From: a virus
DNA length: 64,000 nt
Direction: 5' to 3' (one strand)
Virus record (IMG/VR): IMGVR_UViG_3300037502_002506
Location: 2,324-66,323 of that record
The notes under the pieces are model-generated. The model was not told the DNA's origin. It ran no database searches and worked only from the letters and a program-made list of their open reading frames with translations. The position numbers and the translations under genes are program-made. Positions 5,069 to 49,895 of this stretch are shown piece after piece (within the stretch, counting starts at the first letter, position 1; the number at the start of each line of letters is the position of its first letter).

Positions 5069-5117
5069 TTATTTATCCTTTCAATAATGTAAGTCTATCA
5101 GGTAGCACTGACAAGGA

Positions 5118-5294
5118 CTAGCCTTGCCAATGTTGAGAGTCATCACCCTCATCTACTCTAACAGTTTCGATAGTGTAGCCCCAACGGACTAGGCTATCTA
5201 GCAAGTCATTTATTTGATACTCGCTAACCATGAGGCGATTTACTACCTCTACTAGTGTGCCGTCTTTTTCGGCTGTGTAACTAAGTGTTTTCAT
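5118..5294 (-). CDS. Small hypothetical protein (58 aa)
   Basis: MKTLSYTAEKDG...; AGAAAGGA SD and promoter. Confidence 0.65.
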   Translation of the reverse strand: MKTLSYTAEKDGTLVEVVNRLMVSEYQINDLLDSLVRWGYTIETVRVDEGDDSQHWQG

Positions 5295-5383
5295 TTAGTT
5301 ATCCTTTCTATTTAGTAATCTTATCCTATACCCTGCCACTGACATTTTGGGGTGTCTGTGGGGTGTGTCCCCTGTGATTTATA

Positions 5384-5503
5384 TCACTTGCAATCGCACA
5401 CTTTGTGCTGCTTGTAGAATTGATGCCCACTCTTTGGGCAAGTTACATATTCACTAGGCTTGACTATCATATAGTCGTTTCTTGATTCGAAAATTGTGTT
5501 CAT
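5384..5503 (-). CDS. Small Cys/His protein (39 aa)
   Basis: MNTIFESRND...CPKSGH...CDCK; AGAAAGGA SD. Confidence 0.6.
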   Translation of the reverse strand: MNTIFESRNDYMIVKPSEYVTCPKSGHQFYKQHKVCDCK

Positions 5504-5588
5504 TTTCTTATCCTTTCTTTATTTTCTAATACTGGAAGTATAACAGAGGGGACTGACATTTTGACCCGTTTTTCGGGCGTGTCGTCCA

Positions 5589-5756
5589 TCAATTTTTGTG
5601 AGTTGCCTCACACTCTGGAGCACACTTAGATGGGAGGCTCCATAGGTACTTGAGGAGAGCCTTTCTCTCAGATAGTGAGATTTCAGGGTGATGTCCCTTG
5701 ACACCTCCATGCTGATACTCATAAACGATTTTTTCTAATGTTTTATTTGATAACAT
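5589..5756 (-). CDS. Small hypothetical protein (55 aa)
   Basis: MLSNKTLEKIVYEYQHGG...; AGAAAGGA SD. Confidence 0.6.
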   Translation of the reverse strand: MLSNKTLEKIVYEYQHGGVKGHHPEISLSERKALLKYLWSLPSKCAPECEATHKN

Positions 5757-5868
5757 AACTAAATATCCTTTCTAAAAATACAATAGTATCCTATCACAAA
5801 AATATCAAAAAGTCAAGTCCTAACACGGCGTGTCGTGTGTGAATTAGGTCACATTTTCTGCCTCGCTG

Positions 5869-5890
5869 CGACACGCCCGACAGCGTCGGC
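5869..5890 (+). repeat. 22-bp repeat CGACACGCCCGACAGCGTCGGC, copy 1
   Basis: Identical to 7417-7438; contains CCGAC-N3-GTCGG palindrome. Confidence 0.95.
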
Positions 5891-5977
5891 AAAATGTCCG
5901 TTTTGTCCACTTACGTACGATGTGATTTTTCTCACAAAAATATTTTACAAAATGTCCGATTTATCCGCATTTTAGAT

Positions 5978-6006
5978 TTGAGATTGTCAGACCCCTGTGC
6001 TAGACT
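5978..6006 (+). promoter_or_regulatory. Sigma-A-like early promoter with TGTCAG spacer element
   Basis: TTGAGA-17-TAGACT, extended -10 TG, TGTCAG 10 nt before -10. Confidence 0.75.
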
Positions 6007-6035
6007 TACAGCATTAGAAAGAAAGGAAAAATGAA

Positions 6036-6218
6036 ATGAAAACTCCAATGTCGCTTAGAGAAATTGAGGAATTAGGTTTCTCTCTTGAAAGTAAAATTTG
6101 CGTGTTCTGCTCTCAAATAGTAGATGAAAGAATTTGCCTAAATTGCGGTGAATATAAAGGTGTAATAAATATCGTCGAAGCCGTAGGATACTACGGAAAA
6201 GAAATTCTCGGATACTAG
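6036..6218 (+). CDS. Small Zn-ribbon protein
   Basis: CVFC...CLNC; AGAAAGGA SD. Confidence 0.65.
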   Translation: MKTPMSLREIEELGFSLESKICVFCSQIVDERICLNCGEYKGVINIVEAVGYYGKEILGY

Positions 6219-6233
6219 AAAGGAAAACCGAAA

Positions 6234-6380
6234 ATGAATTATCAAGAACTAAAAGAGGCTCAAGATAAACAACGAGCCAAAGAAATGGAAAGAATTCGTC
6301 TAATGAATGAAATGTCTTTCGCTAATCGTAATCCTCGCCCTCTAAATAATGCCTATGAGTTAGGGAAATTAGATCGCTAA
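6234..6380 (+). CDS. Small hypothetical protein (48 aa)
   Basis: MNYQELKEAQ...; AGAAAGGA SD. Confidence 0.6.
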   Translation: MNYQELKEAQDKQRAKEMERIRLMNEMSFANRNPRPLNNAYELGKLDR

Positions 6381-6417
6381 ATGTGATATACCCCACAAAA
6401 ATCAACGGCGTGTCGCC

Positions 6418-6446
6418 TTGATTTTGTCAGGGGAAAATGCTAAAAT
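6418..6446 (+). promoter_or_regulatory. Early promoter
   Basis: TTGATT-17-TAAAAT with TGTCAG; GGCGTGTCG and CRP-like box upstream. Confidence 0.75.
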
Positions 6447-6476
6447 TACAGAGTAATAAAATGAAAGAAGGTAAAA

Positions 6477-6674
6477 ATGAAAACTTATTCAATTCCAGAC
6501 CTGCTAATTGGTCAGACTTACTACCCTCGCTCTATGGCGAGAAAATACCAGTATGGTGAAATCAACTTCGCTGAAAAGCGTGAGGATATTTACCTAAGCG
6601 AAGGCTATGAGCCTTTCGCAATTCGTTTCAATGGCAACAAGTGGGCTACTGTTGCGGTTAGGGTGGCTGACTAA
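6477..6674 (+). CDS. Hypothetical early protein
   Basis: SD and promoter. Confidence 0.65.
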   Translation: MKTYSIPDLLIGQTYYPRSMARKYQYGEINFAEKREDIYLSEGYEPFAIRFNGNKWATVAVRVAD

Positions 6675-6790
6675 TGAAACTTCATGAATTTCAAGAATTA
6701 GTAAAAGCGCAACGCAAAGCGCAAGAATTGACAAACTTAGAGAAAATCGCTAAAATTGTATCAACAACGAAAGAAAAGGAAAATAACTAA
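6674..6790 (+). CDS. Small hypothetical protein (38 aa)
   Basis: TAATG coupling on both sides. Confidence 0.55.
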   Translation: MKLHEFQELVKAQRKAQELTNLEKIAKIVSTTKEKENN

Positions 6791-7047
6791 TGACTAACGC
6801 AACTTACACAGATTTCCCCTTCACAGTAAAGGGAATCAACTTCATCTCACGAGTTTATTCTCACTCAGAAATGCTAAAAACAATTCTTAGCCTGCCTGCG
6901 GGAATTTTTGAAACCATGAATCAGGAAGCAGTTTCCGAAATTATTGGTGACCCTTCATTGCTAACTAATGATGAACTATTGACAGAACTAGACAGAGTAA
7001 ATGAAGGCGGAACTCATGCCTTTATTTTGTTAGGAGAAAATAACTAA
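6790..7047 (+). CDS. Hypothetical early protein
   Basis: SD, TAATG coupling. Confidence 0.65.
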   Translation: MTNATYTDFPFTVKGINFISRVYSHSEMLKTILSLPAGIFETMNQEAVSEIIGDPSLLTNDELLTELDRVNEGGTHAFILLGENN

Positions 7048-7238
7048 TGACACTTTCTAAAACACACTTCAAGGCTATTGCTTCAATCCTCGCAGATGTA
7101 AAAGATGAAATTCATCCGCAAGTCTATGAGGATTTAGTAGAAGGCTTCTCAACTTATTTCGGAACTAAAAACGAATTATTTGATAAAGCAAAATTCGAAA
7201 CCGCTTGCGGTGTTGATGAGTTAGGAATTATCGCATGA
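7047..7238 (+). CDS. Hypothetical early protein
   Basis: KTHFKAIA...FDKAKFETAC, a common small phage protein pattern. Confidence 0.65.
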   Translation: MTLSKTHFKAIASILADVKDEIHPQVYEDLVEGFSTYFGTKNELFDKAKFETACGVDELGIIA

Positions 7239-7416
7239 GCAGATTTCTGACTACACTTGTTCAAATTTTTCTCATCGCTTCTATTTATTACACTATAAAA
7301 CTTGCGACAAAAGAAAACTAAATTCAAAACATGCGAGGTCTGCGGTAGAATTTTTGTCGCAGATCTAAAATGTTTTTTGTGCGCTGCTAAACAGTAGTTC
7401 AACTTTCAACTAATTC

Positions 7417-7438
7417 CGACACGCCCGACAGCGTCGGC
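7417..7438 (+). repeat. 22-bp repeat, copy 2
   Basis: Identical to 5869-5890. Confidence 0.95.
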
Positions 7439-7441
7439 CAC

Positions 7442-7461
7442 TTATCCACAGGATATCCACA
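7442..7461 (+). promoter_or_regulatory. Tandem DnaA boxes
   Basis: TTATCCACA 7442-7450 and ATATCCACA 7453-7461. Confidence 0.6.
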
Positions 7462-7569
7462 ATGTGAATTACGTTACAATAAAAAAAATTCCCGAATTAC
7501 GGCGTGTCGATTTGCTTTCCAGAAATATTTTTGATAGGCTTGAAGCCTGAAAATGAAAGAAGGTAAAAA

Positions 7570-7725
7570 ATGAAAAATATTCTAATCTCATATGTAATCG
7601 ATGCTGATACGGATAAAGAAGCGATTAGTCATCTAAAGGCTTTGCTTTATTTGTTGCCACAAGACTATGCGAAAAACTTTCAAGTTTTTGATATTTGTGA
7701 TGTAGATAACAGCGTTTTGGCTTGA
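7570..7725 (+). CDS. Small hypothetical protein (51 aa)
   Basis: MKNILISYVID...; SD and promoter. Confidence 0.55.
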   Translation: MKNILISYVIDADTDKEAISHLKALLYLLPQDYAKNFQVFDICDVDNSVLA

Positions 7726-7750
7726 AAATGTCAGTAGCCTATGATAGGCT
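7722..7750 (+). promoter_or_regulatory. Early promoter
   Basis: TTGAAA-17-TAGGCT with TGTCAG. Confidence 0.75.
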
Positions 7751-7777
7751 CAGAGTATTGAAAGAAAGGAAATAAAA

Positions 7778-7990
7778 ATGGATAAATTGGAATACGCACT
7801 ACGACAGATTGCTAATTGTAATCTATGCGAAGGCAAGGGTGTCTTTTACTTTGGTAGCGGAGACTACTATGACTTTGAGGATTGCGAGTGTAATACTTAT
7901 GGAATTATCTTTGATGAAACAGGCGAGGTAATTTTTGATAATGGACTACTAAGTGAGCCTGAACTACTAATGAGCGGAGAAGCACGATAA
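7778..7990 (+). CDS. Small Zn-finger protein
   Basis: CNLCEGKG...CEC; resembles 4949..5068. Confidence 0.65.
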   Translation: MDKLEYALRQIANCNLCEGKGVFYFGSGDYYDFEDCECNTYGIIFDETGEVIFDNGLLSEPELLMSGEAR

Positions 7991-8289
7991 TGGGAAGCAA
8001 CATGGCTAACGAAATGGCAAGCGGTGTATTAGATGATTTAGGAATACACCTAGACATTGAAACTCAGATAGGAATTCACTTATCTGCTAATCACTACCCT
8101 CCCGTACCCTCCAGCATGGTCAAGCCTTGTATTGAGGCTATTGACGCAGTAAATGATTTGGGACTATGGGACGCAGACATAGAATTGCCTGAAGGAATAT
8201 CGTGGCGAGGTAGCAATTATGCCCCTGCCCATGCTATTATTGAGGCACACCACCTAGAGGCTTGGCTTATTGAAAGAGAGGAATACTAA
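7990..8289 (+). CDS. Hypothetical early protein
   Basis: HLSANHYPPVP...HHL; coupled to upstream gene. Confidence 0.7.
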   Translation: MGSNMANEMASGVLDDLGIHLDIETQIGIHLSANHYPPVPSSMVKPCIEAIDAVNDLGLWDADIELPEGISWRGSNYAPAHAIIEAHHLEAWLIEREEY

Positions 8290-8290
8290 A

Positions 8291-8443
8291 ATGAATGGAT
8301 ATAAATTCAGAACTGCGCTTGCTAAAATCGCACCTGATTATCAGATAGATGAGGATAATGACGGACAGATAATTATCTACACTAATCTAAAAGATGACGG
8401 AAATGACAACTATATTGAATTTGACCTAGATGAGGAGAACTAA
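8291..8443 (+). CDS. Small acidic protein (50 aa)
   Basis: MNGYKFRTAL...; GAGG SD. Confidence 0.55.
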   Translation: MNGYKFRTALAKIAPDYQIDEDNDGQIIIYTNLKDDGNDNYIEFDLDEEN

Positions 8444-8445
8444 AA

Positions 8446-8655
8446 ATGGAATACACTTATGCGCTAACTACTTCCTATGACGGGGAACTAGTAAATACCC
8501 TGCGGGTTTCAGATTTACTTGAAGCCGTAAATGCGTGGGATAAATGCGTAGACTTTGGCGATGCTAAAGAATACGCAACCTATAACTTATCAGACCCACT
8601 AGGTAAAATGTATACAAAAACTTTTTACCGAAATGGTGAAGTGAGCATTCGCTAA
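8446..8655 (+). CDS. Hypothetical early protein
   Basis: GAGGAG SD. Confidence 0.65.
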   Translation: MEYTYALTTSYDGELVNTLRVSDLLEAVNAWDKCVDFGDAKEYATYNLSDPLGKMYTKTFYRNGEVSIR

Positions 8656-8883
8656 ATGTCTGATACAATGATGAGCATGGAATTGCGATTCGCTGATTAT
8701 CTTCTGCCAAACCAATTGGCGGAAGGTGATCTCATCAAACTTGAAAACCAGTATCTAACTGTAAAAGAAATTAGCGAAACTAAAGAAGGATACAATTTAG
8801 TTTTAGCAGATGACTTTGATGATGAAGAAGAATATTTTATTCTTGATGATACAAAAATTGAATGGTATGTTTTTGTAGAATAA
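8656..8883 (+). CDS. Hypothetical acidic protein
   Basis: ORF adjacent to upstream stop. Confidence 0.6.
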   Translation: MSDTMMSMELRFADYLLPNQLAEGDLIKLENQYLTVKEISETKEGYNLVLADDFDDEEEYFILDDTKIEWYVFVE

Positions 8884-9138
8884 AATCCCGAAAAAGCGGG
8901 CCGACCAATTTATACCAAATGTCCGTTTTACGTAGTTTACGTAGAATCTCCCAAAATTTGTGATTTTTATTTGTTTGTGATATTATTATTTTATGTTTAG
9001 AAAAAGCAAAGAAGAGTTGAGACGCATTCAAGAGTTGCGTAGATCCAATGCAGCCTCTGCCGTAAATAGCAAGCGTGTTTATACTAGACAAAGCAATAAA
9101 AAAATGATAGACTTATCAATGAAAGAAAGGGATGAGCA

Positions 9139-9858
9139 ATGAAACTAAAACGCTCTAATGATAGGAAGGTGGCCAATGCAGTCTCCCCAAATGGGAAAAC
9201 GCCAACAATTGCTAACACTTTTGGACTACCTAGTGGTAAGGCTTACTCATGTCCTGGTGAGACCTCTGTATGCGCTAAAGTCTGCTACGCAGGAAAACTC
9301 GAAAAAATCTACAAAGGAGTAAGAGATACTCTATTACACAATTGGAATTTGCTAAAAGACGCAGACCATGACACAATGGAAAATCTATTGCAAGAAATGA
9401 TAGATGATTTCAAAAAAGATTGTGATAAGAAAGACGCCCCTAAACTATTCCGTATCCACTGGGATGGCGATTTCTTTAGCAAGGAATACGCATTCGCATG
9501 GAAACACGTAATCCTAAATAATCCTGATGTTCAATTCTGGGTTTATACTCGTGTAAAGATTGCTGCAGAAATGCTAAAGAATATTGATAATCTTAGTTTA
9601 TATTTCTCTGCAGATAGTGAGAATATCAAAACAGCCGTAGAACTAAAACAAAATCATGGTGTACGCATGGCATACCTTGCACAGAATTTTGTAGCGGGTC
9701 AAGAAAAAATGAAAGAACTAATTTCTAAGCCTGGTGCTAAATGTCCTGAAAATGCAAAACGTATTCCTCTAATCTCTACTAATGGCAGCGCATGCGTTAG
9801 TTGTGGATTGTGTGTTTATAATAAAGCAGATATTGTATTTAGTGCGAGTAAAAAATAA
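9139..9858 (+). CDS. Gp88-like (radical-SAM-related) protein
   Basis: CPGETSVCAKVCYA, RIHWDGDF, C-terminal CVSCGLC. Confidence 0.7.
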   Translation: MKLKRSNDRKVANAVSPNGKTPTIANTFGLPSGKAYSCPGETSVCAKVCYAGKLEKIYKGVRDTLLHNWNLLKDADHDTMENLLQEMIDDFKKDCDKKDAPKLFRIHWDGDFFSKEYAFAWKHVILNNPDVQFWVYTRVKIAAEMLKNIDNLSLYFSADSENIKTAVELKQNHGVRMAYLAQNFVAGQEKMKELISKPGAKCPENAKRIPLISTNGSACVSCGLCVYNKADIVFSASKK

Positions 9859-10081
9859 AATGCGTGTAGAGTATTTATTGATAGCATGGCTAATACTTTA
9901 CTTTTTTATTTCTCAATAGATCCCCCGCAAAAAGTGGTCGGCCCCCAAAACCTATTTTGTCAAGTTACGACTATGTGATTATGTTCACAAAAAAAATACC
10001 CCCAAAACCCTCCCCAAATTGTATTTTTGGTATTTTTCTGCTAAACTTATACTAAGACCCAAACAGAAAGGAAAAACGCAA

Positions 10082-10249
10082 ATGACACTAGGCGGATACA
10101 CTTATCAGGTAGGAGATTTATTTACTACCAGCAAGACAGGTGTGACAGGTCGTATTGAGAAGTTCGTTCCAATGCGTCAAAATGTCACTAAGGTCATGCT
10201 TCGCTTGGCAAATAATCAAACTAGATTTGCTATGGTGAAAACACACTAA
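10082..10249 (+). CDS. Small SH3/KOW-like protein
   Basis: YQVGD...SKTGVTGRI; paralog of next gene. Confidence 0.6.
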   Translation: MTLGGYTYQVGDLFTTSKTGVTGRIEKFVPMRQNVTKVMLRLANNQTRFAMVKTH

Positions 10250-10348
10250 TCTCAAAATGTGAGAAATATCAGGTTTCGGCTTGACATTATCTCTCAAAAA
10301 TGTAATAATAATACAAGTAATAAAAACCAACTAACAAAGGAGAAAGAA

Positions 10349-10516
10349 ATGGCAGTAGCAACAGCAACTTACAAGGTAGGCGACACCTACACCTCACAGA
10401 AGTCAAAGGTGACAGGCGTTATTACTGAAATCAAGCCAAACACAGACGGAACAAGCGTTCGTGTAAAACTTGATGTCAATGGCTCACCTCGCTGGACAAC
10501 TTGGACAGCAAAGTAA
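10349..10516 (+). CDS. Small SH3/KOW-like protein
   Basis: YKVGD...SKVTGVI; AAGGAG SD. Confidence 0.65.
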   Translation: MAVATATYKVGDTYTSQKSKVTGVITEIKPNTDGTSVRVKLDVNGSPRWTTWTAK

Positions 10517-10534
10517 TTCCTAAATAACAGGAAA

Positions 10535-10563
10535 AGTCCTGAGCATGACTACTAAAACTGCTC
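10535..10563 (+). ncRNA. Conserved H-type pseudoknot element, copy 1
   Basis: AGTC-CTGAGCAT-GACT-ACTAAAAC-TGCTC. Confidence 0.7.
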
Positions 10564-10628
10564 ACTTGATTTCTAGCAGTAAAAATGCTAGACTATAAAT
10601 AACAACCCACTAAGAAAGGATAAAGTAA

Positions 10629-11048
10629 ATGGCACGACAGAAAGCAATTAGCGTGAAAATCGCTACAACTAAAGTCATCAAGGCTTTAGAAACAAAACTA
10701 GCACAAATCCAAAAGGATAAGGCTAGTCAGAAATCAAACGAGGAAAAGTTTGATAAGGCTCTAAAGGCTTACAACAAAGAGGTAGCAAAGTTAGCACTAG
10801 ATAAAATCTCTAAGGCAACTGACCTATCTGCTCACAAGAGATACAATGGAGAAGTCCAAGTATCCTTCGCTCTACCTGCTGGAACTATTGACCTACCTAC
10901 TGAACCTGAAAGAGAGTTTCAGAGTTTCCATGAGTGGCAATACAAGGAAATGATAGAGGAAATTGAGAACGCAATTCGTATTCTCAAGATGACAGATGAG
11001 GAAGTAGTTTCTACTTCTACTTACAACGCTATCGCTAGATACTTGTAA
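10629..11048 (+). CDS. Hypothetical coiled-coil protein
   Basis: AGAAAGGA SD, promoter. Confidence 0.75.
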   Translation: MARQKAISVKIATTKVIKALETKLAQIQKDKASQKSNEEKFDKALKAYNKEVAKLALDKISKATDLSAHKRYNGEVQVSFALPAGTIDLPTEPEREFQSFHEWQYKEMIEEIENAIRILKMTDEEVVSTSTYNAIARYL

Positions 11049-11052
11049 AATT

Positions 11053-11076
11053 GAGAGGGGTGTAAAAGCCCCTCTC
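11053..11076 (+). terminator. Hairpin after gene stop, possible terminator
   Basis: GAGAGGGG/CCCCTCTC stem; weak U-tract. Confidence 0.5.
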
Positions 11077-11125
11077 TCTATCCCCTGCGTTCCACGCTAT
11101 TTATAGCAAGTGTCCCCTGGGGATC

Positions 11126-11151
11126 GTCCTGAGCATGACACTAAACTGCTC
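11126..11151 (+). ncRNA. Pseudoknot element, copy 2
   Basis: GTC-CTGAGCAT-GAC-ACTAAAC-TGCTC. Confidence 0.7.
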
Positions 11152-11161
11152 CACCTCCAAC

Positions 11162-11191
11162 TTGACAAATGTCAGACCCCAATGCTAAACT
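11162..11191 (+). promoter_or_regulatory. Early promoter
   Basis: TTGACA-18-TAAACT with TGTCAG. Confidence 0.8.
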
Positions 11192-11217
11192 TAGTATTAG
11201 AAAGAAAGGAAACTAAA

Positions 11218-11490
11218 ATGATAGCAACCGCTATAGCACTACAACAAGCAACACAAGAAGCAGTTCATGATGAAATGACTATGGACATGGCTTCTCACTT
11301 ATTTCACGCAAGAAATGAAATGTCAGATAATGATTTCGCAAGAGCATTATTTGAATATTCTGCTCTGCTCTCATCACTAACAACAACTCTTGTAACCCAT
11401 GTATTATTGACAGAGGAACAAGTAAATGCTATGATTAGTGATATCAAAGAATTTGATGAACTTGGAAAGGATGTAACAAATGGAAACTAA
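11218..11490 (+). CDS. Hypothetical protein
   Basis: Start reassigned behind AGAAAGGA. Confidence 0.7.
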   Translation: MIATAIALQQATQEAVHDEMTMDMASHLFHARNEMSDNDFARALFEYSALLSSLTTTLVTHVLLTEEQVNAMISDIKEFDELGKDVTNGN

Positions 11491-11890
11491 TGTAATTCAT
11501 GCGACGGAGGAGTATCTTCGTAATCGAATCACAGAACTAGAGGAGCGAGTAAAGACTGTAGAAGAGTCTCATGCTCGTGTTGTACAGCGGGATTTTAGTA
11601 CATCTGCTGCACTGAATGCAATGTCAGAGTCGCTACGTGACTGGACCGTGGAGAACCTAGAAAATGGCTCTATCAATGATGAGCAGGCCTTGGAACTGGC
11701 GGAGATTGGTTCGTTTGAACTAACAAAAGAAGTAGAGGCTGAAGTCTCTGTAACTTACTACATAACATTGAATGTGCCTGCAGGAGAAAATGCTGAAGAC
11801 ATAATCAATGATATTGATTTCGACGCAATTGTATATGACACGGACCATGTTACACATGTTTCATCTAGTGTCGACAGTGTTGACATCTAA
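11480..11890 (+). CDS. Hypothetical acidic protein
   Basis: GAAAGGA SD, overlap with upstream gene. Confidence 0.7.
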   Translation: METNVIHATEEYLRNRITELEERVKTVEESHARVVQRDFSTSAALNAMSESLRDWTVENLENGSINDEQALELAEIGSFELTKEVEAEVSVTYYITLNVPAGENAEDIINDIDFDAIVYDTDHVTHVSSSVDSVDI

Positions 11891-11896
11891 ATAAAT

Positions 11897-11999
11897 TTGC
11901 GTGGTTCATGAAAGGCCACGCAATGTGCACGGATCTCTTCTTTCATCCTTTCTTTCAAAGAGACCGTGAGGGACCTGAGCACGTCCACGTAAACTGCTC
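11897..11999 (+). ncRNA. Candidate small RNA: hairpin + anti-SD hairpin + pseudoknot copy 3
   Basis: Stems 11897-11923 and 11928-11968 (loop CTTTCATCCTTTCTTTCA); GGAC-CTGAGCAC-GTCC-ACGTAAAC-TGCTC at 11971-11999. Confidence 0.65.
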
Positions 12000-12081
12000 A
12001 CCTCCAAAAAAGTGGTCGGCCCGTTTTGTCCTAAAATGTCCGATTTACGAAGTTACGATCAAAACGCCCGAATCCCAGGAT

Positions 12082-12110
12082 TTGCTTTTGTCAGACCGCT
12101 GTGCTAAACT
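12082..12110 (+). promoter_or_regulatory. Early promoter
   Basis: TTGCTT-17-TAAACT with TGTCAG. Confidence 0.75.
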
Positions 12111-12143
12111 TTAGATAATAAACAAAACAGAAAGGAATAAAAA

Positions 12144-13145
12144 ATGGCTCATGAATTAGAATCAGAAAAGTCATTCGCTAGTTTCCGTGAACCTGCTTGG
12201 CATGGTTTAGGAACCGTATTTACAGAGGAAGTTTCCACACGGGAAATGTTGTCTCTTGCTAATCTCCAGAATTGGAATGTTAGATTGGAAGATGTTGTGA
12301 TTCCAGAAAATCTCACATCAGATAAATCTTATCAGTATGTTGTGCGTACTAATCCGTTTGATAAAAATCAGACAGATGTTCTTGGTGTTGTAGGTGAGCG
12401 TTATGTTCCACTACAAAATGAAGACCTATTCACTTTTGGTGATGCGATTCTTGATGGCGGTGGTCGTTGGGAAACAGCAGGTTCTCTAAAAGGTGGTCGT
12501 GTAGTGTTTGGCTCTCTTGCGTTAGAGCGTGAGACAGTTCTTGACCCTAATGGCGTTGCTGATGTTGTCAAGACTTATCTTCTTGTCAATACATCACATG
12601 ACGGTTCAGTTGCTATTCAAGCAAGTGTGACCCCCGTTCGTGTTGTGTGTGCTAATACTCTTGCCGTTGCTCTTGGTAGAGGTAAGCGTGGTATAAAGCA
12701 ATCATTCAAGATTCGTCACACGCAATCTGCTGATGGTAAAGTTCAACAGGCTCGTGAGGCTCTAGGTGTTGCTAATGCATACATGGATGAGTTTTCTAAA
12801 ATGGCTCAGTTGATGATTCAAAAAGAAATCACAGCGCAACAGTTCAATGACATTGTTTTGCTTGCGTATCCAAAGCCTGATGAGACTAAGAAGGGTGCAT
12901 TGAAAAAGTGGGAAAATAAAATTGACACTATCAATGACATCTACACAGGTCAATTCAATGGCATGATTGCCAATACTGCTTGGGGTGCTTGGAATGCACT
13001 CACAGAAAGAATCGATTGGTATCGTGGAGGTAAGCGTGGTCTTACTGAATCAATCCTAATGGGTTCAAGTGGTTTTGACCCTGCTATCACAGCAGAAAAA
13101 AATCGTTTGCTACAAGTTGTGAATTCAACTTTAGAATTAGTATAA
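12144..13145 (+). CDS. DUF932 / phage-plasmid-like protein
   Basis: PAWHGLG, WETAGSL, SHDGS, TPVRVVCANT. Confidence 0.85.
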   Translation: MAHELESEKSFASFREPAWHGLGTVFTEEVSTREMLSLANLQNWNVRLEDVVIPENLTSDKSYQYVVRTNPFDKNQTDVLGVVGERYVPLQNEDLFTFGDAILDGGGRWETAGSLKGGRVVFGSLALERETVLDPNGVADVVKTYLLVNTSHDGSVAIQASVTPVRVVCANTLAVALGRGKRGIKQSFKIRHTQSADGKVQQAREALGVANAYMDEFSKMAQLMIQKEITAQQFNDIVLLAYPKPDETKKGALKKWENKIDTINDIYTGQFNGMIANTAWGAWNALTERIDWYRGGKRGLTESILMGSSGFDPAITAEKNRLLQVVNSTLELV

Positions 13146-13154
13146 ACTAATTCA

Positions 13155-13181
13155 ACTCCTGAGCATGAGTATAAACTGCTC
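13155..13181 (+). ncRNA. Pseudoknot element, copy 4
   Basis: ACTC-CTGAGCAT-GAGT-ATAAAC-TGCTC. Confidence 0.7.
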
Positions 13182-13348
13182 TATTTTTTATTTGACAAAA
13201 GATCAAAAAAGTGGCCGACTAAAAATATCATCAAAAACTTTTATTACGTAACCGACTAAAAATGTCATGAATTTTTTTCATTACGTACAACTTGCTTTTT
13301 CCCCTAGATTTTGGTAGAATAATAATAGAACCCATGAAAGGAAATATA

Positions 13349-13510
13349 ATGCTAGGATATACAACAGAGCAGGTAGAAAATATGGCTACTACTTTAAACT
13401 ATTCTATTCATCATCATATTAATAATACTGTATTTGCTGATGAGGATAAGAAGGTATTGAGAGATCTAGAGGATTTCTTATGGGGATTATTGGCAGAGGG
13501 ACGTGTTTGA
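13349..13510 (+). CDS. Small hypothetical protein
   Basis: GAAAGGA SD before MLGYT. Confidence 0.6.
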   Translation: MLGYTTEQVENMATTLNYSIHHHINNTVFADEDKKVLRDLEDFLWGLLAEGRV

Positions 13511-13564
13511 CATACCCTGCCTAATTTGCTAGAATAATACAAGAACCCACAGAAAGGACCCATA

Positions 13565-14311
13565 ATGCCAAATTGGTGTTACAACTATCTAACTATCGAG
13601 GGCAATGAGCAAGACATTGCTAAAGTTAAAGCACAACTTAACCAACCATTTACTAAAATGCATGATACATTCAATATGGAGACAGGTCAAATGGAGTTCA
13701 CAGAGACCTCATACTCTAACCCTGTATTTGCATTCCATAATATATATAATCACACACAGGCAGGTATATCTGATGAGGATTATATGAAGCAACCTGACCA
13801 TACCCTGCCAATTCAAGAGGCTATGATGTTTAAGGGTAATCATTGGTACGACTTTAATGTTCGTGAATGGGGAACCAAATGGGATGTGGCTGTCCGTGAC
13901 GGAGAAGACTATCCTGAAACTGAGTTAAATACAGAGGACGACTGGTCAACTAGTTTGACATATAGGTTTAATACAGCATGGTCACCCCCTGTTCCTGCTA
14001 TTGAGAAGTTATCTCTTCAATATCCTAATCTAGAATTTACCTTGTCTTATGAAGAAGAGACTGGGTGGGGTGGAGAAGTTCTATTCGTGGACGGAAGCGG
14101 AAGCGAAATAGAATCCTATGAAAACAAGTGTAGAGATTGTGATTCAGTCAATACATTACAGTATTGTGATAACGATTGTGGAGAAATCTGTGATTCTTGT
14201 CACTATCTAGGCGAGGCAGACCTAGAGTGTGTTGCAGAGTGTGATGAGCACAAGATATACTTAGACGACGAACACGTACCCAACTACAGAATGGACCAAC
14301 CAAATGTCTAA
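13565..14311 (+). CDS. DUF1281/YubB ferredoxin-like protein with Cys-rich tail
   Basis: MPNWC, WGTKWD, FNTAWSPP. Confidence 0.75.
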   Translation: MPNWCYNYLTIEGNEQDIAKVKAQLNQPFTKMHDTFNMETGQMEFTETSYSNPVFAFHNIYNHTQAGISDEDYMKQPDHTLPIQEAMMFKGNHWYDFNVREWGTKWDVAVRDGEDYPETELNTEDDWSTSLTYRFNTAWSPPVPAIEKLSLQYPNLEFTLSYEEETGWGGEVLFVDGSGSEIESYENKCRDCDSVNTLQYCDNDCGEICDSCHYLGEADLECVAECDEHKIYLDDEHVPNYRMDQPNV

Positions 14312-14510
14312 TTACTTATTAGAGTATATGAAGATACATCTGGTCTCTATTGAACAAGACCAATCAGACGTATCAGAACAAATGGAATCGCTTGACCCTA
14401 ACTCTAAAGACTATGCTGAGTTAGACTTTGAATATAACTGGTTGGCAGGTCAGATTATTGCTACCCGCCACTTTATACAGATTGGAGAAGAGCATGCAAA
14501 CAAACTTTAA
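14304..14510 (+). CDS. Hypothetical protein
   Basis: Overlapping operon ORF. Confidence 0.6.
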   Translation: MSNYLLEYMKIHLVSIEQDQSDVSEQMESLDPNSKDYAELDFEYNWLAGQIIATRHFIQIGEEHANKL

Positions 14511-14778
14511 TCCAGATTACAATCTAGAGGAGCACATACAGTTAGCAGTAGATATGCGTGTGCCTGCTTTAGATATCATGCATGGTGAACTTAAGAACCT
14601 AATGTATGAGGCTGAACTACAACTTGAGGAAGCACGTCGCATAGAACAAGATAATCATTACTCAGACGCTATGCAGTCCATGGAACGTACATATGCTGAG
14701 GGATATATTGACGCTCTTGTACATCTTTATAATTTAACTTATCAGTTATCATTTGCTATCGCAGAACGGGAGGAGTAA
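14494..14778 (+). CDS. Hypothetical protein
   Basis: GGAG SD before MQTNF. Confidence 0.6.
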   Translation: MQTNFNPDYNLEEHIQLAVDMRVPALDIMHGELKNLMYEAELQLEEARRIEQDNHYSDAMQSMERTYAEGYIDALVHLYNLTYQLSFAIAEREE

Positions 14779-14926
14779 TGGAGATCTTGATCGGACTATT
14801 TCTAGTATTAATGGTACTAGGAGCAGCAGCAGGAGGGTATACAAATGAGCCAAAACTATGAGCAGTTGACATTAGACCTACAATTTGATACACTAGAAGA
14901 AAACCCTACTACCGAAAGGACCCACC

Positions 14927-15283
14927 ATGGGAGCACGTTGTACATTCGTTTTTAAGCAGTCAGAAGACCAGGCAGTGGCCTTATACAGCCATTGGGGTGA
15001 ATACTCTATTTATCCAGACCTGGCAGCAGCCCTGCAGCATGCAGCACCACGCCTAGGCGATGAGTCATACTACATACGTATGGCTGTTAGTTATCTAATC
15101 AAGGATAATATTATGGACGAGACGGGGTATGGAATTTATGCCTGCAATCCTAATGACCTGGGATTCATGGACCATCCCGTGCTAATTGATTTAATTAATA
15201 AGACTGTAACTGATGACACTGGTATACATACTATACAAGATTTTATTAACTATCACAGTCTTGTGACGACGGTCACATCCTAG
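14927..15283 (+). CDS. Hypothetical phage protein
   Basis: MGAR...LYSHWG; GAAAGGA SD. Confidence 0.7.
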   Translation: MGARCTFVFKQSEDQAVALYSHWGEYSIYPDLAAALQHAAPRLGDESYYIRMAVSYLIKDNIMDETGYGIYACNPNDLGFMDHPVLIDLINKTVTDDTGIHTIQDFINYHSLVTTVTS

Positions 15284-15347
15284 GAGGGTTGGGTCCCCTC
15301 CGTAATAACGGGGGCGTAGGTAGCACCTTTCTTCTACTTGCGCCCCC
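15283..15347 (+). ncRNA. Candidate small RNA: hairpin + anti-SD hairpin
   Basis: GGAGGG/CCCTCC stem, then 14-bp stem 15310-15347 with loop CACCTTTCTT. Confidence 0.5.
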
Positions 15348-49838: not shown

Positions 49839-49895
49839 AGTCCTTTCTTCCTCCAGATTAAATACAGGACTATTATAACATTTTATTTGAAATAA

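Follow-up and report, generated by a model that had tools for sequence, protein, structure and literature searches.

A structured RNA module, comprising two hairpins (designated here as H1 and H2) followed by an H-type pseudoknot, was identified within positions 11891-12143 of a 64 kb stretch of viral DNA (referred to here as the window) out of the 66 kb IMG/VR virus record IMGVR_UViG_3300037502_002506. The module is a non-coding + strand RNA structure, located in the gap between open reading frame (ORF) 11480-11890 and the DUF932 gene at 12144-13145, both of which are encoded on the + strand, and the apical loop of H2 complements a Shine-Dalgarno (SD) class that the phage uses almost exclusively in its early region. 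Our preferred reading, to which we assign a probability of about 0.4, is that the module represents a structured RNA of the 3' untranslated region (3'-UTR), the H2 loop of which would act as an anti-SD seed that represses GAAAGGA-led mRNAs, either in trans following processing or in cis.

Taken from a record that is ~60% complete and having a GC content of ~35%, the window encodes WhiB, a GP88-family protein, DUF7455, DnaE, RecA, seven tRNAs and many 2OG-Fe(II) oxygenases. The DNA runs in which it was found are lake-water metagenomes, and its complete relatives are 101-120 kb in size; taken together with the gene content, this identifies the virus as a large freshwater actinophage, and an actinobacterial host, as presumed in the initial annotation of this locus, is reasonable when judged from WhiB, GP88 and DUF7455. 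A blastn search of 11400-12300 against 50,697 records of cultured phages returned no match.

H1 (11897-11923, + strand) begins 7 nt past the stop codon (TAA, 11888-11890) of ORF 11480-11890, which encodes an acidic protein of 136 aa without a Pfam family and in the 3'-UTR of which the module lies; homologues of this ORF stand 5' of the module in the closest relatives. H1 consists of a 10 bp stem, the two innermost pairs of which are U.G, and the loop CAUGAAA. H2 (11928-11968, + strand) consists of an 11 bp stem with a bulged A at 11933, formed by the 5' arm CACGG(A)TCTCTT (11928-11939) and the 3' arm AAGAGACCGTG (11958-11968), and an 18 nt loop (11940-11957; CTTTCATCCTTTCTTTCA as DNA, CUUUCAUCCUUUCUUUCA as RNA). 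The pseudoknot (11971-11999, + strand), the third of four copies in the window, is composed of S1 (GGAC/GUCC, 11971-74 paired with 11983-86), S2 (GAGCA/UGCUC, 11977-81 paired with 11995-99) and L3 (ACGUAAAC). The initial annotation had described a stem at 11928-11968 situated between a 10 bp hairpin and pseudoknot copy 3, and its coordinates and sequences were correct throughout, the flanking elements being H1 and the pseudoknot at 11971-11999.

Within the H2 loop, the invariant core UCCUUUCU (11946-11953, + strand), which is the complement of AGAAAGGA, is identical to the 3' end of 16S rRNA of the Gram-positive type. The mature 16S rRNA of the host presumably ends in CCUCCUUUCU. This tail has been shown for several Gram-positive bacteria, with no actinobacterium among those in the available text of the source (PMC6288834).

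RNAfold analysis of 11891-12012 (+ strand) predicted exactly H1 and H2, with the H2 loop unpaired (-38.6 kcal/mol, z = -4.4), and none of 200 shuffled sequences folded as well. A gathering scan of the whole window against Rfam 15 returned seven tRNAs only, and a scan of 9800-13600 at E<=10 gave two chance snoRNA matches elsewhere, with none at the module, including its pseudoknot. H2 was also considered as an intrinsic terminator, which was ruled out based on its 18 nt loop, the sequence AGGGACC after the stem and its absence from the terminator scan. By contrast, the hairpin at 15310-15347 and its homologues have a canonical terminator appearance.

To establish the conservation of the module, relatives were gathered in three independent ways, i.e. 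by DUF932 protein search (113 confirmed stretches, of which 80 were kept), by the exact 18-mer of the loop (39 loci) and by a core-plus-pseudoknot pattern (74 loci). A MAFFT alignment (designated A1) was generated from 23 distinct H1-H2-pseudoknot modules from viral metagenome contigs. In this alignment, 96.5% of pair cells were paired, compared with 81.8% upon shuffling and 33-46% when the partners were slid, and 17 of the 30 pairs were changed on both sides, a number that was reached in none of 500 shuffles. These two-sided changes were observed for 9 of the 11 pairs of H2 and 7 of the 10 pairs of H1, and RNAalifold predicted the same two helices unaided. Stem lengths are 10 bp (H1) and 10-11 bp (H2) across the 23 modules. 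In one row (L083), the H2 3' arm was misaligned by MAFFT and scored as unpaired; folded alone, this sequence forms a perfect 9 bp stem. The structure of H2 is selected, being more than chance would produce, and by RNAfold, covariation and RNAalifold it is a stable hairpin that displays a single-stranded, pyrimidine-rich loop.

The loops were shown to be more conserved than the H2 arms, with a mean column identity of 0.994 for the H1 loop and 0.954 for the H2 loop, compared with 0.68 and 0.73 for the H2 arms and 0.45 after the pseudoknot. Conservation of the loop in related phages had been put forward as a check in the initial annotation, and it was borne out: 16 of the 18 H2 loop columns are invariant among the 23 relatives, while the H2 stem covaries. 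For more distant copies, a set of 34 H2 hairpins was compared, which comprised 20 of the 23 H1-bearing modules (L046, L113 and L146 being omitted as near-duplicates) and 14 copies without H1. These hairpins represent 25 different 5' arms, and all of them form a hairpin around the core. The 14 H1-less hairpins possess stems that are unrelated to that of the window and loops of 14-18 nt that share the core, followed by U in 12 cases, and differ in the 5' part of the loop. The loop is more constrained than the stem, and its core is kept across unrelated stems and gene contexts.

The genes upstream of the module copies belong to at least four unrelated families. By similarity search, a single match per genome was obtained in each of five complete or near-complete relatives (101-120 kb). 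The core-plus-pseudoknot pattern was also found on cellular genome contigs (at least 120 loci, diverse phyla), where pseudoknot pairing was passed by 1 of the 120 listed loci vs 48 of the 74 viral loci, and no host or prophage copy of the module was identified among the cellular-genome matches listed.

The + strand and non-coding assignment follows from G.U pairs, the covariation described above and unconserved reading frames. G.U pairs account for 21 of 347 stem pairs and would be A.C mismatches on the minus strand; in addition, the U.G pairs of H1, which would also be mismatched on that strand, are kept in 20-22 of the 23 modules. A small protein gene on the + strand (ORF 11908-12114, 68 codons, with its start in the H1 loop) was rejected, as the frame falls into five phase classes with lengths of 6-35 codons in the 23 relatives, and the spacer of the two hairpins contains indels of 1-2 nt that put reading frames out of phase on both strands. 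The initial annotation had considered that the sequence might be the ribosome-binding site (RBS) of a real minus-strand ORF. This candidate was also rejected: the sole start codon is an ATG that abuts the SD-like string (spacing 0), and the 19-codon frame behind it encodes 18 different peptides in the 23 relatives, three of them with early stops, i.e. no conserved frame or usable start codon is present.

The partner of the loop was sought among the RBSs of the phage. As proposed in the initial annotation, a segment of the loop (11946-11957, 12 nt) is the exact complement of a candidate target RBS at 7759-7770 (TGAAAGAAAGGA, + strand), and its claim that the loop covers the RBS type of the early genes was also confirmed. 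The heptamer GAAAGGA occurs 17 times in the window, and 16 of these copies are located within 3.9-15.3 kb (17.8% of the window). All 11 + strand copies, the further ones starting at 6021, 6218, 10066, 10614, 11204, 11465, 12130, 13336, 13552 and 14914, lie within 25 nt 5' of early start codons (curated starts); among the other copies, four serve leftward early genes (5082-5772), one represents the H2 loop in antisense and one is located at 49847. No GAAAGGA was found within 25 nt 5' of listed ORF starts outside the early region, and ORFs elsewhere in the window are preceded by GGAGG, AGGAG, AAGGA or no clear site.

Furthermore, the 8-mer TCCTTTCT or its complement is present 13 times in the window vs 3.6 expected (13 was reached in none of 100 shuffles), with 12 of the 13 copies located within 5302-13558, and the copy in the H2 loop is the only one with anti-SD sense on the strand of the surrounding + genes. 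The presence of two SD classes in one phage may reflect temporal control of translation. The SD of early genes at 5300-15300, often GAAAGAAAGGA, is of a type that pairs with the outermost 3' nucleotides of the 16S tail.

Duplexes between the H2 loop and the translation initiation regions (TIRs) of 21 curated early starts were predicted, and 18 of these exhibited energies of -9.4 to -18.7 kcal/mol. Compared with a background of 11,632 windows (5th percentile, -9.3 kcal/mol; 1st percentile, -12.2 kcal/mol), 18 of the 21 early TIRs were at or below the 5th percentile and 10 at or below the 1st. The strongest duplex was predicted for the initiation region of the GP88-family gene (9119-9135, + strand, -18.7 kcal/mol), the best predicted partners being GP88, 6036, 8282, 7778 and 11218. 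Because the exposed UCCUUUCU is invariant across unrelated stems and contexts, and because SD sites are the one class of sequence under constraint to complement the 16S tail, they would be the most economical partner of the core.

Based on these features, the module would be transcribed as the 3'-UTR or intercistronic tail of an early phage mRNA. H2 would represent the functional centre and keep its apical loop of 14-18 nt open, allowing the invariant core (U)CCUUUCU, the same as the 16S 3' tail, to pair with GAAAGGA-type SDs. An SD paired in this way would be inaccessible to the 30S subunit, which would reduce translation of early mRNAs, possibly also that of host mRNAs with the same SD, and later genes with GGAGG/AAGGAG-type sites would be spared. 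Action in trans would involve a 3' fragment kept stable by the protection that H1, H2 and the pseudoknot afford, and action in cis would concern read-through transcripts. We infer that the module accumulates as RNA, pairs and represses translation.

Such repression could also amount to a temporal switch operated by RNA only, which we consider unlikely. The hairpin would then be a copy of the ribosomal anti-SD tail made by the phage. A nuclease-resistant H1-H2-pseudoknot fragment would build up as early transcripts pile up and selectively mask the GAAAGGA RBSs of early genes, and perhaps those of host genes, thereby freeing ribosomes for middle and late genes led by GGAGG/AAGGAG. The SD-like loop of H1 would serve as a lid on the seed, to be opened by ribosomes that terminate 7 nt upstream.

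A number of observations, on pairing as well as on transcription, weigh against an anti-SD function. Invariance of the core in the pattern-based set is partly circular, since the search demanded the core. Two checks avoid this circularity and speak for the core. In a scan for the pseudoknot only, in which the core was not required and a narrow pseudoknot subtype was used as the anchor, 54 loci with 35 distinct upstream contexts were recovered; 27 of these contexts contain a large-loop hairpin, the core being present in 27 of 27, and the remaining eight contain other hairpins or none. Copies L051 and L067, which were found via the DUF932 protein and are free of search circularity, also carry the core. 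The complement of the full 18 nt loop has no site in the window at three or fewer mismatches, so there is no unique target, and predicted energies below -12 kcal/mol are due for the most part to the SD that the sites have in common. The last three to four bases of the loop vary (UUCA, UAUA, UAAA or UUAG), and no covariation of this variable end with the RBS flanks of the same genomes was found in five relatives; pairing past ~9-10 nt is therefore without covariation support. In addition, the RBSs of ORF 10629 and of the gene upstream of the module vary in the extra positions across G001-G005, the stoichiometry is unfavourable (one loop per genome vs ~11-17 complementary RBSs), and the CUUUCAU segment of the H2 loop may be conserved for contact with H1, not for a target.

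Regarding transcription, the nearest candidate start of a module transcript is a promoter-like site at 11407-11435 (+ strand; TTGACA-17-TATGAT with TG; 11 of 12 consensus matches, by consensus only), which sits inside the gene preceding ORF 11480-11890, and the promoter scan revealed no such site between 11435 and H1. No U-tract follows H2 in the window sequence, only two of the 23 modules (L005 and L084) show a clear U-run behind the pseudoknot, and a defined 3' end of a small RNA (sRNA) is not evident. Five of the 22 listed runs are recorded as RNA, all as assembled contigs, which give no ends, strand or level, and four of these (X16-X19) were examined. Five read-length unitigs of X16 map to 10000-14000, among which a 151 nt unitig (depth 2.8) matches 11877-12011 without mismatch, followed by 16 letters unlike the window, and may reflect DNA carry-over; the depth of X18 and X19 at the module is ~1.6 or less. 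Contigs of this kind weigh neither for nor against a small RNA. Given its position 7 nt past a stop codon and the lack of an own promoter, the module is better described as a 3'-UTR or intercistronic element, possibly processed, rather than as a stand-alone sRNA gene. Of the stable 16S-tail mimic that was envisaged in the initial annotation, a selected + strand RNA structure with a core equal to that tail is supported, whereas a discrete species of ~100 nt, the occlusion of SDs and an effect on host mRNAs are putative.

An architectural role at the 3' end is a somewhat unlikely alternative to the anti-SD reading. In such a scenario, H1 and H2 would pack via a loop-loop contact and, together with the pseudoknot, stabilise, process or end the upstream mRNA, and the likeness to 16S rRNA would be incidental. 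The H1 sequence AUGAAAG(G) resembles an SD and is the complement of CUUUCAU at the 5' end of the H2 loop, and the 7 nt duplex of AUGAAAG and CUUUCAU is predicted at -6.8 kcal/mol, a value matched by 2.3% of shuffled H1 loops. CUUUCAU is present in all 23 H1-bearing modules, while 13 of the 14 H1-less copies carry other 5' loops (L067 keeps CUUUCAU), and in some H1-less copies (L131 and L187) H1 is replaced by a hairpin with a G-rich loop. The nearly equal lengths of the two stems in 23 of 23 modules are consistent with packing, the module always adjoins the pseudoknot, which recurs behind four successive genes or operons of the window, and terminator hairpins with similar loops exist (L161 and G005). 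However, the core is kept in all 14 copies without H1, including those without H1 or a purine-loop partner (L163, L152, L153, the L133 group, L169, L144 and L051), and contact with H1 therefore cannot explain its conservation. Moreover, both loops are invariant, so that covariation does not back the contact, H2 is missing from three of the window's four pseudoknot copies, and these phages possess canonical terminators with a stem and U-tract, of which H2 is not one. The distribution of the two segments, being co-occurrence and not covariation, suggests a two-part loop, in which the 5' part may contact H1 and the core is kept for something else.

An improbable reading is that the loop serves as a decoy or binding site for a protein that recognises the 16S tail or pyrimidine tracts, in counter-defence or ribosome retuning; as a mimic of the tail, it would titrate such a factor. 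Candidates would be ribosomal protein S1 or bS21, the nuclease that matures the 16S 3' end, or a toxin with endoribonuclease activity against the anti-SD; MazF-mt3 of mycobacteria, for example, cuts UCCUU. In line with this proposal, the loop reproduces the tail sequence itself instead of its complement, and a run of 7-8 nt that is strictly conserved within a large open loop would also suit recognition by a protein. A precedent for phage RNA mimicry is pseudo-ToxI, a phage RNA described in the available text of PMC3594212 as mimicking a host RNA to defeat a toxin. Conversely, no candidate protein was identified in this analysis, the match of the core to the early-gene SD type would be a coincidence, and the data do not tell protein binding from RNA pairing.

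Very unlikely is a cis-only insulator, in which the loop would pair with the SD of the next gene (AGAAAGGA, 12129-12136) on read-through transcripts, such that this gene would be translated only from mRNAs that start at its own promoter. The downstream RBS is an exact 8 nt complement of the loop (duplex of -10.4 kcal/mol), and no U-tract is present behind H2 or, in most relatives, behind the pseudoknot. A promoter-like site was also read by eye between the module and the DUF932 gene (12082-12110, + strand; TTGCTT-17-TAAACT with TG; below the threshold of the promoter scan), and DUF932 mRNAs initiated there would be without the module; its TGNTAAACT box recurs in the repeat family D1/D2. However, the RBS is ~180 nt away across an intervening sequence that is variable, and this SD is among the weaker predicted partners, the downstream evidence being from the window, with 300 nt flanks for the other loci.

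Finally, the absence of any + strand RNA function, with the sequence representing the RBS of a small minus-strand gene, a DNA cruciform, a recombination scar or the remnant of an inverted RBS cassette, is extremely improbable: the reverse complement of the loop does resemble a phage RBS plus spacer, the identical 18-mer is a true RBS before ATG in unrelated viral contigs (L090, L100, L102, L105, L118 and L119), similar strings are minus-strand RBSs at 5302-5773 and intergenic cassettes appear shuffled (joint of 11052 to 13156), but the abutting ATG, the diverging 19-codon frame, the frame-shifting indels with their five phase classes, the G.U pairs that are valid on the + strand only and the compensatory changes that keep pairing, not sequence, all oppose it.

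The anti-SD reading was compared with known systems, among them base-pairing regulatory RNAs with an anti-SD apical loop, a class that includes 6C, RNAIII and RsaE. The 6C sRNA of actinobacteria is described in the available text of PMC6486639 as pairing with G-rich RBSs via C-rich apical loops and repressing translation, independently of a chaperone. Similar to 6C (B11/6C of Mycobacterium tuberculosis, from the same phylum as the host), the module displays hairpins with pyrimidine-rich apical loops. In contrast to 6C, the module shows no Rfam similarity at E up to 10, its H2 loop is the literal 16S tail UCCUUUCU instead of a C-run directed against G-runs, and it is phage-borne, located 7 nt after a stop codon, without its own promoter and fused to a pseudoknot, whereas 6C is a stand-alone chromosomal gene. 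In Staphylococcus aureus, apical UCCC loops of the 3' domain of RNAIII, including that of the terminator hairpin, bind the SDs of several mRNAs and block initiation. The H2 loop resembles the C-rich loops of RNAIII hairpins 7, 13 and 14 in its complementarity to SDs, while differing in organism and sequence; RNAIII is a 514 nt quorum-sensing effector that encodes a peptide and recruits RNase III. By analogy, we read the module as acting in the manner of 6C and RNAIII with their anti-SD loops, without being a member of either family.

The module may also be compared with sRNAs derived from 3'-UTRs, such as CpxQ and SroC. According to the available text of PMC13250501, the CisR sRNA likewise derives from the 3'-UTR of prtV. 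In common with this class, the module is located at an mRNA 3' end, has no promoter of its own and carries its seed in a structured 3' fragment; unlike these sRNAs, the seed of H2 is generic (directed to an SD class), not gene-specific, and processing and accumulation of the module are putative. A functional analogue is found in phage T4, where the endoribonuclease RegB, an early function, silences early mRNAs by cutting GGAG in the SD; RegB is a protein nuclease acting on GGAG, as opposed to the proposed RNA that would mask GAAAGGA. A literature search for a phage RNA of this kind yielded nothing relevant, which does not prove its absence from print. Compared with known anti-SD loops, the candidate is new in being phage-borne, embedded in a 3'-UTR, fused to a pseudoknot and composed of the literal 16S tail sequence.

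Low-GC Actinobacteria of fresh waters rank with the most abundant bacteria of lakes, and, to our knowledge, gene regulation in their phages has hardly been explored; phage-host pairs of 'Ca. Nanopelagicales' have reportedly been isolated (PMC10202952). The module described here is a compact and strongly conserved RNA that is absent from Rfam, and the logic of its sequence points directly to the start of translation. The genes of the phage fall into two SD classes, and each genome contains a single exposed copy of the very 16S segment by which one of these classes is read. If the proposed pairing is true, this would be a clear case of a virus that steers the early-to-late transition by rRNA mimicry, and the module would offer a natural means of controlling translation by SD class in Actinobacteria. 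If the temporal switch is true, it would be an RNA counterpart of T4 RegB, in which a virus partitions the translation apparatus by SD class. Whatever the role of the loop, both the module and the pseudoknot that accompanies it represent new RNA motifs that are well supported, with dozens of covarying examples.

The pseudoknot is a repeated element in its own right, with copies at 10536-10564, 11125-11153, 11971-11999 and 13155-13183, each after one of the consecutive early genes of the window. The motif of ~30 nt consists of S1 (4 bp of almost any sequence), CUG, S2, S1', an A-rich segment ending in UAAAC and S2', with GAGCA, GGCCA, GGACA, GGGCA and GAGUA as S2 variants. It recurs after consecutive early genes, usually just 5' of a promoter, with many copies in L002-L081. 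Among 503 anchor candidates (window plus 80 loci), 63 distinct perfect 4+5 bp pseudoknots were found, compared with fewer than one expected by chance. Tandem copies occur in relatives, and one copy is located directly behind a tRNA-like 3' end (L317). The pseudoknot may serve as a processing site, an unusual terminator or a decoy.

The PeSL (promoter-stem-loop) cassettes of T4-type phages are repeated intergenic units in which an early promoter comes after a structure; they lie beside small early genes and delimit the regions where genes are gained and lost, as described in the available text of PMC2839356 and PMC4122927. The pseudoknot-plus-promoter unit, present in four copies between small early genes of the window, is similar to a PeSL, except that its structure is a pseudoknot and not a terminator hairpin; this likeness excludes H2, which is single-copy in the window. 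RNA-run contigs of X18 and X19 join 11052 to 13156 with ACT between them, which would imply a relative without the 2.1 kb that holds three genes and the H1-H2 module. The borders of this joint, the shorter side of which is 26 nt, adjoin hairpin and pseudoknot elements, and such joints can arise from repeats; by analogy, the joint hints at cassette shuffling like that of T4 PeSLs.

Summed contig depth in two RNA runs was by far the highest at 10938-11078 (4689 and 2258 vs 0 in the next bin), a region that takes in the 3' end of ORF 10629-11048 together with a hairpin, GAGAGGGG..CCCCUCUC, that follows it. This hints at the 3' end of an abundant transcript, and many of the contigs are 90-95% alike, hence from relatives.

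A second hairpin with a loop resembling the 16S tail (CACCUUUCUU) was observed at 15310-15347 (+ strand), where a terminator-like structure with a 14 bp GC-rich stem closes the block of GAAAGGA-led genes, the next gene having an AAGGAG site. Its homologue in G005 carries the loop UCUAAUCCUUUCUU followed by a U6 tract; homologous terminators in G001-G003 have other loops without the motif, and the hairpin was rejected as a second conserved family member. A terminator-like hairpin without a pseudoknot was also observed on viral contig L161, with a 9 bp GC-rich stem, the anti-SD-type loop GUCUUAUUCCUUUCUA and UUUU directly after it.

Repeated intergenic boxes were observed at 9930-9950, 12006-12060, 13205-13290, 5869-5975 and 7417-7447, between pseudoknot and promoters. 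These comprise AAAAAGTGGTCGGCCC, repeats of (A)AATGTCCG(A/T)TTT, TTACGA/TTAAGA and, in relatives, GTGATC..ATCAC palindromes, and are probably operator or regulator sites. The auxiliary genes at 17600-45000 are unusual and include a tryptophan halogenase, at least seven 2OG-Fe(II) oxygenase domains and two APS-kinase-like proteins, as well as a sulfotransferase, a carbamoyltransferase, an AdoMet decarboxylase, a peroxiredoxin and Hsp20.

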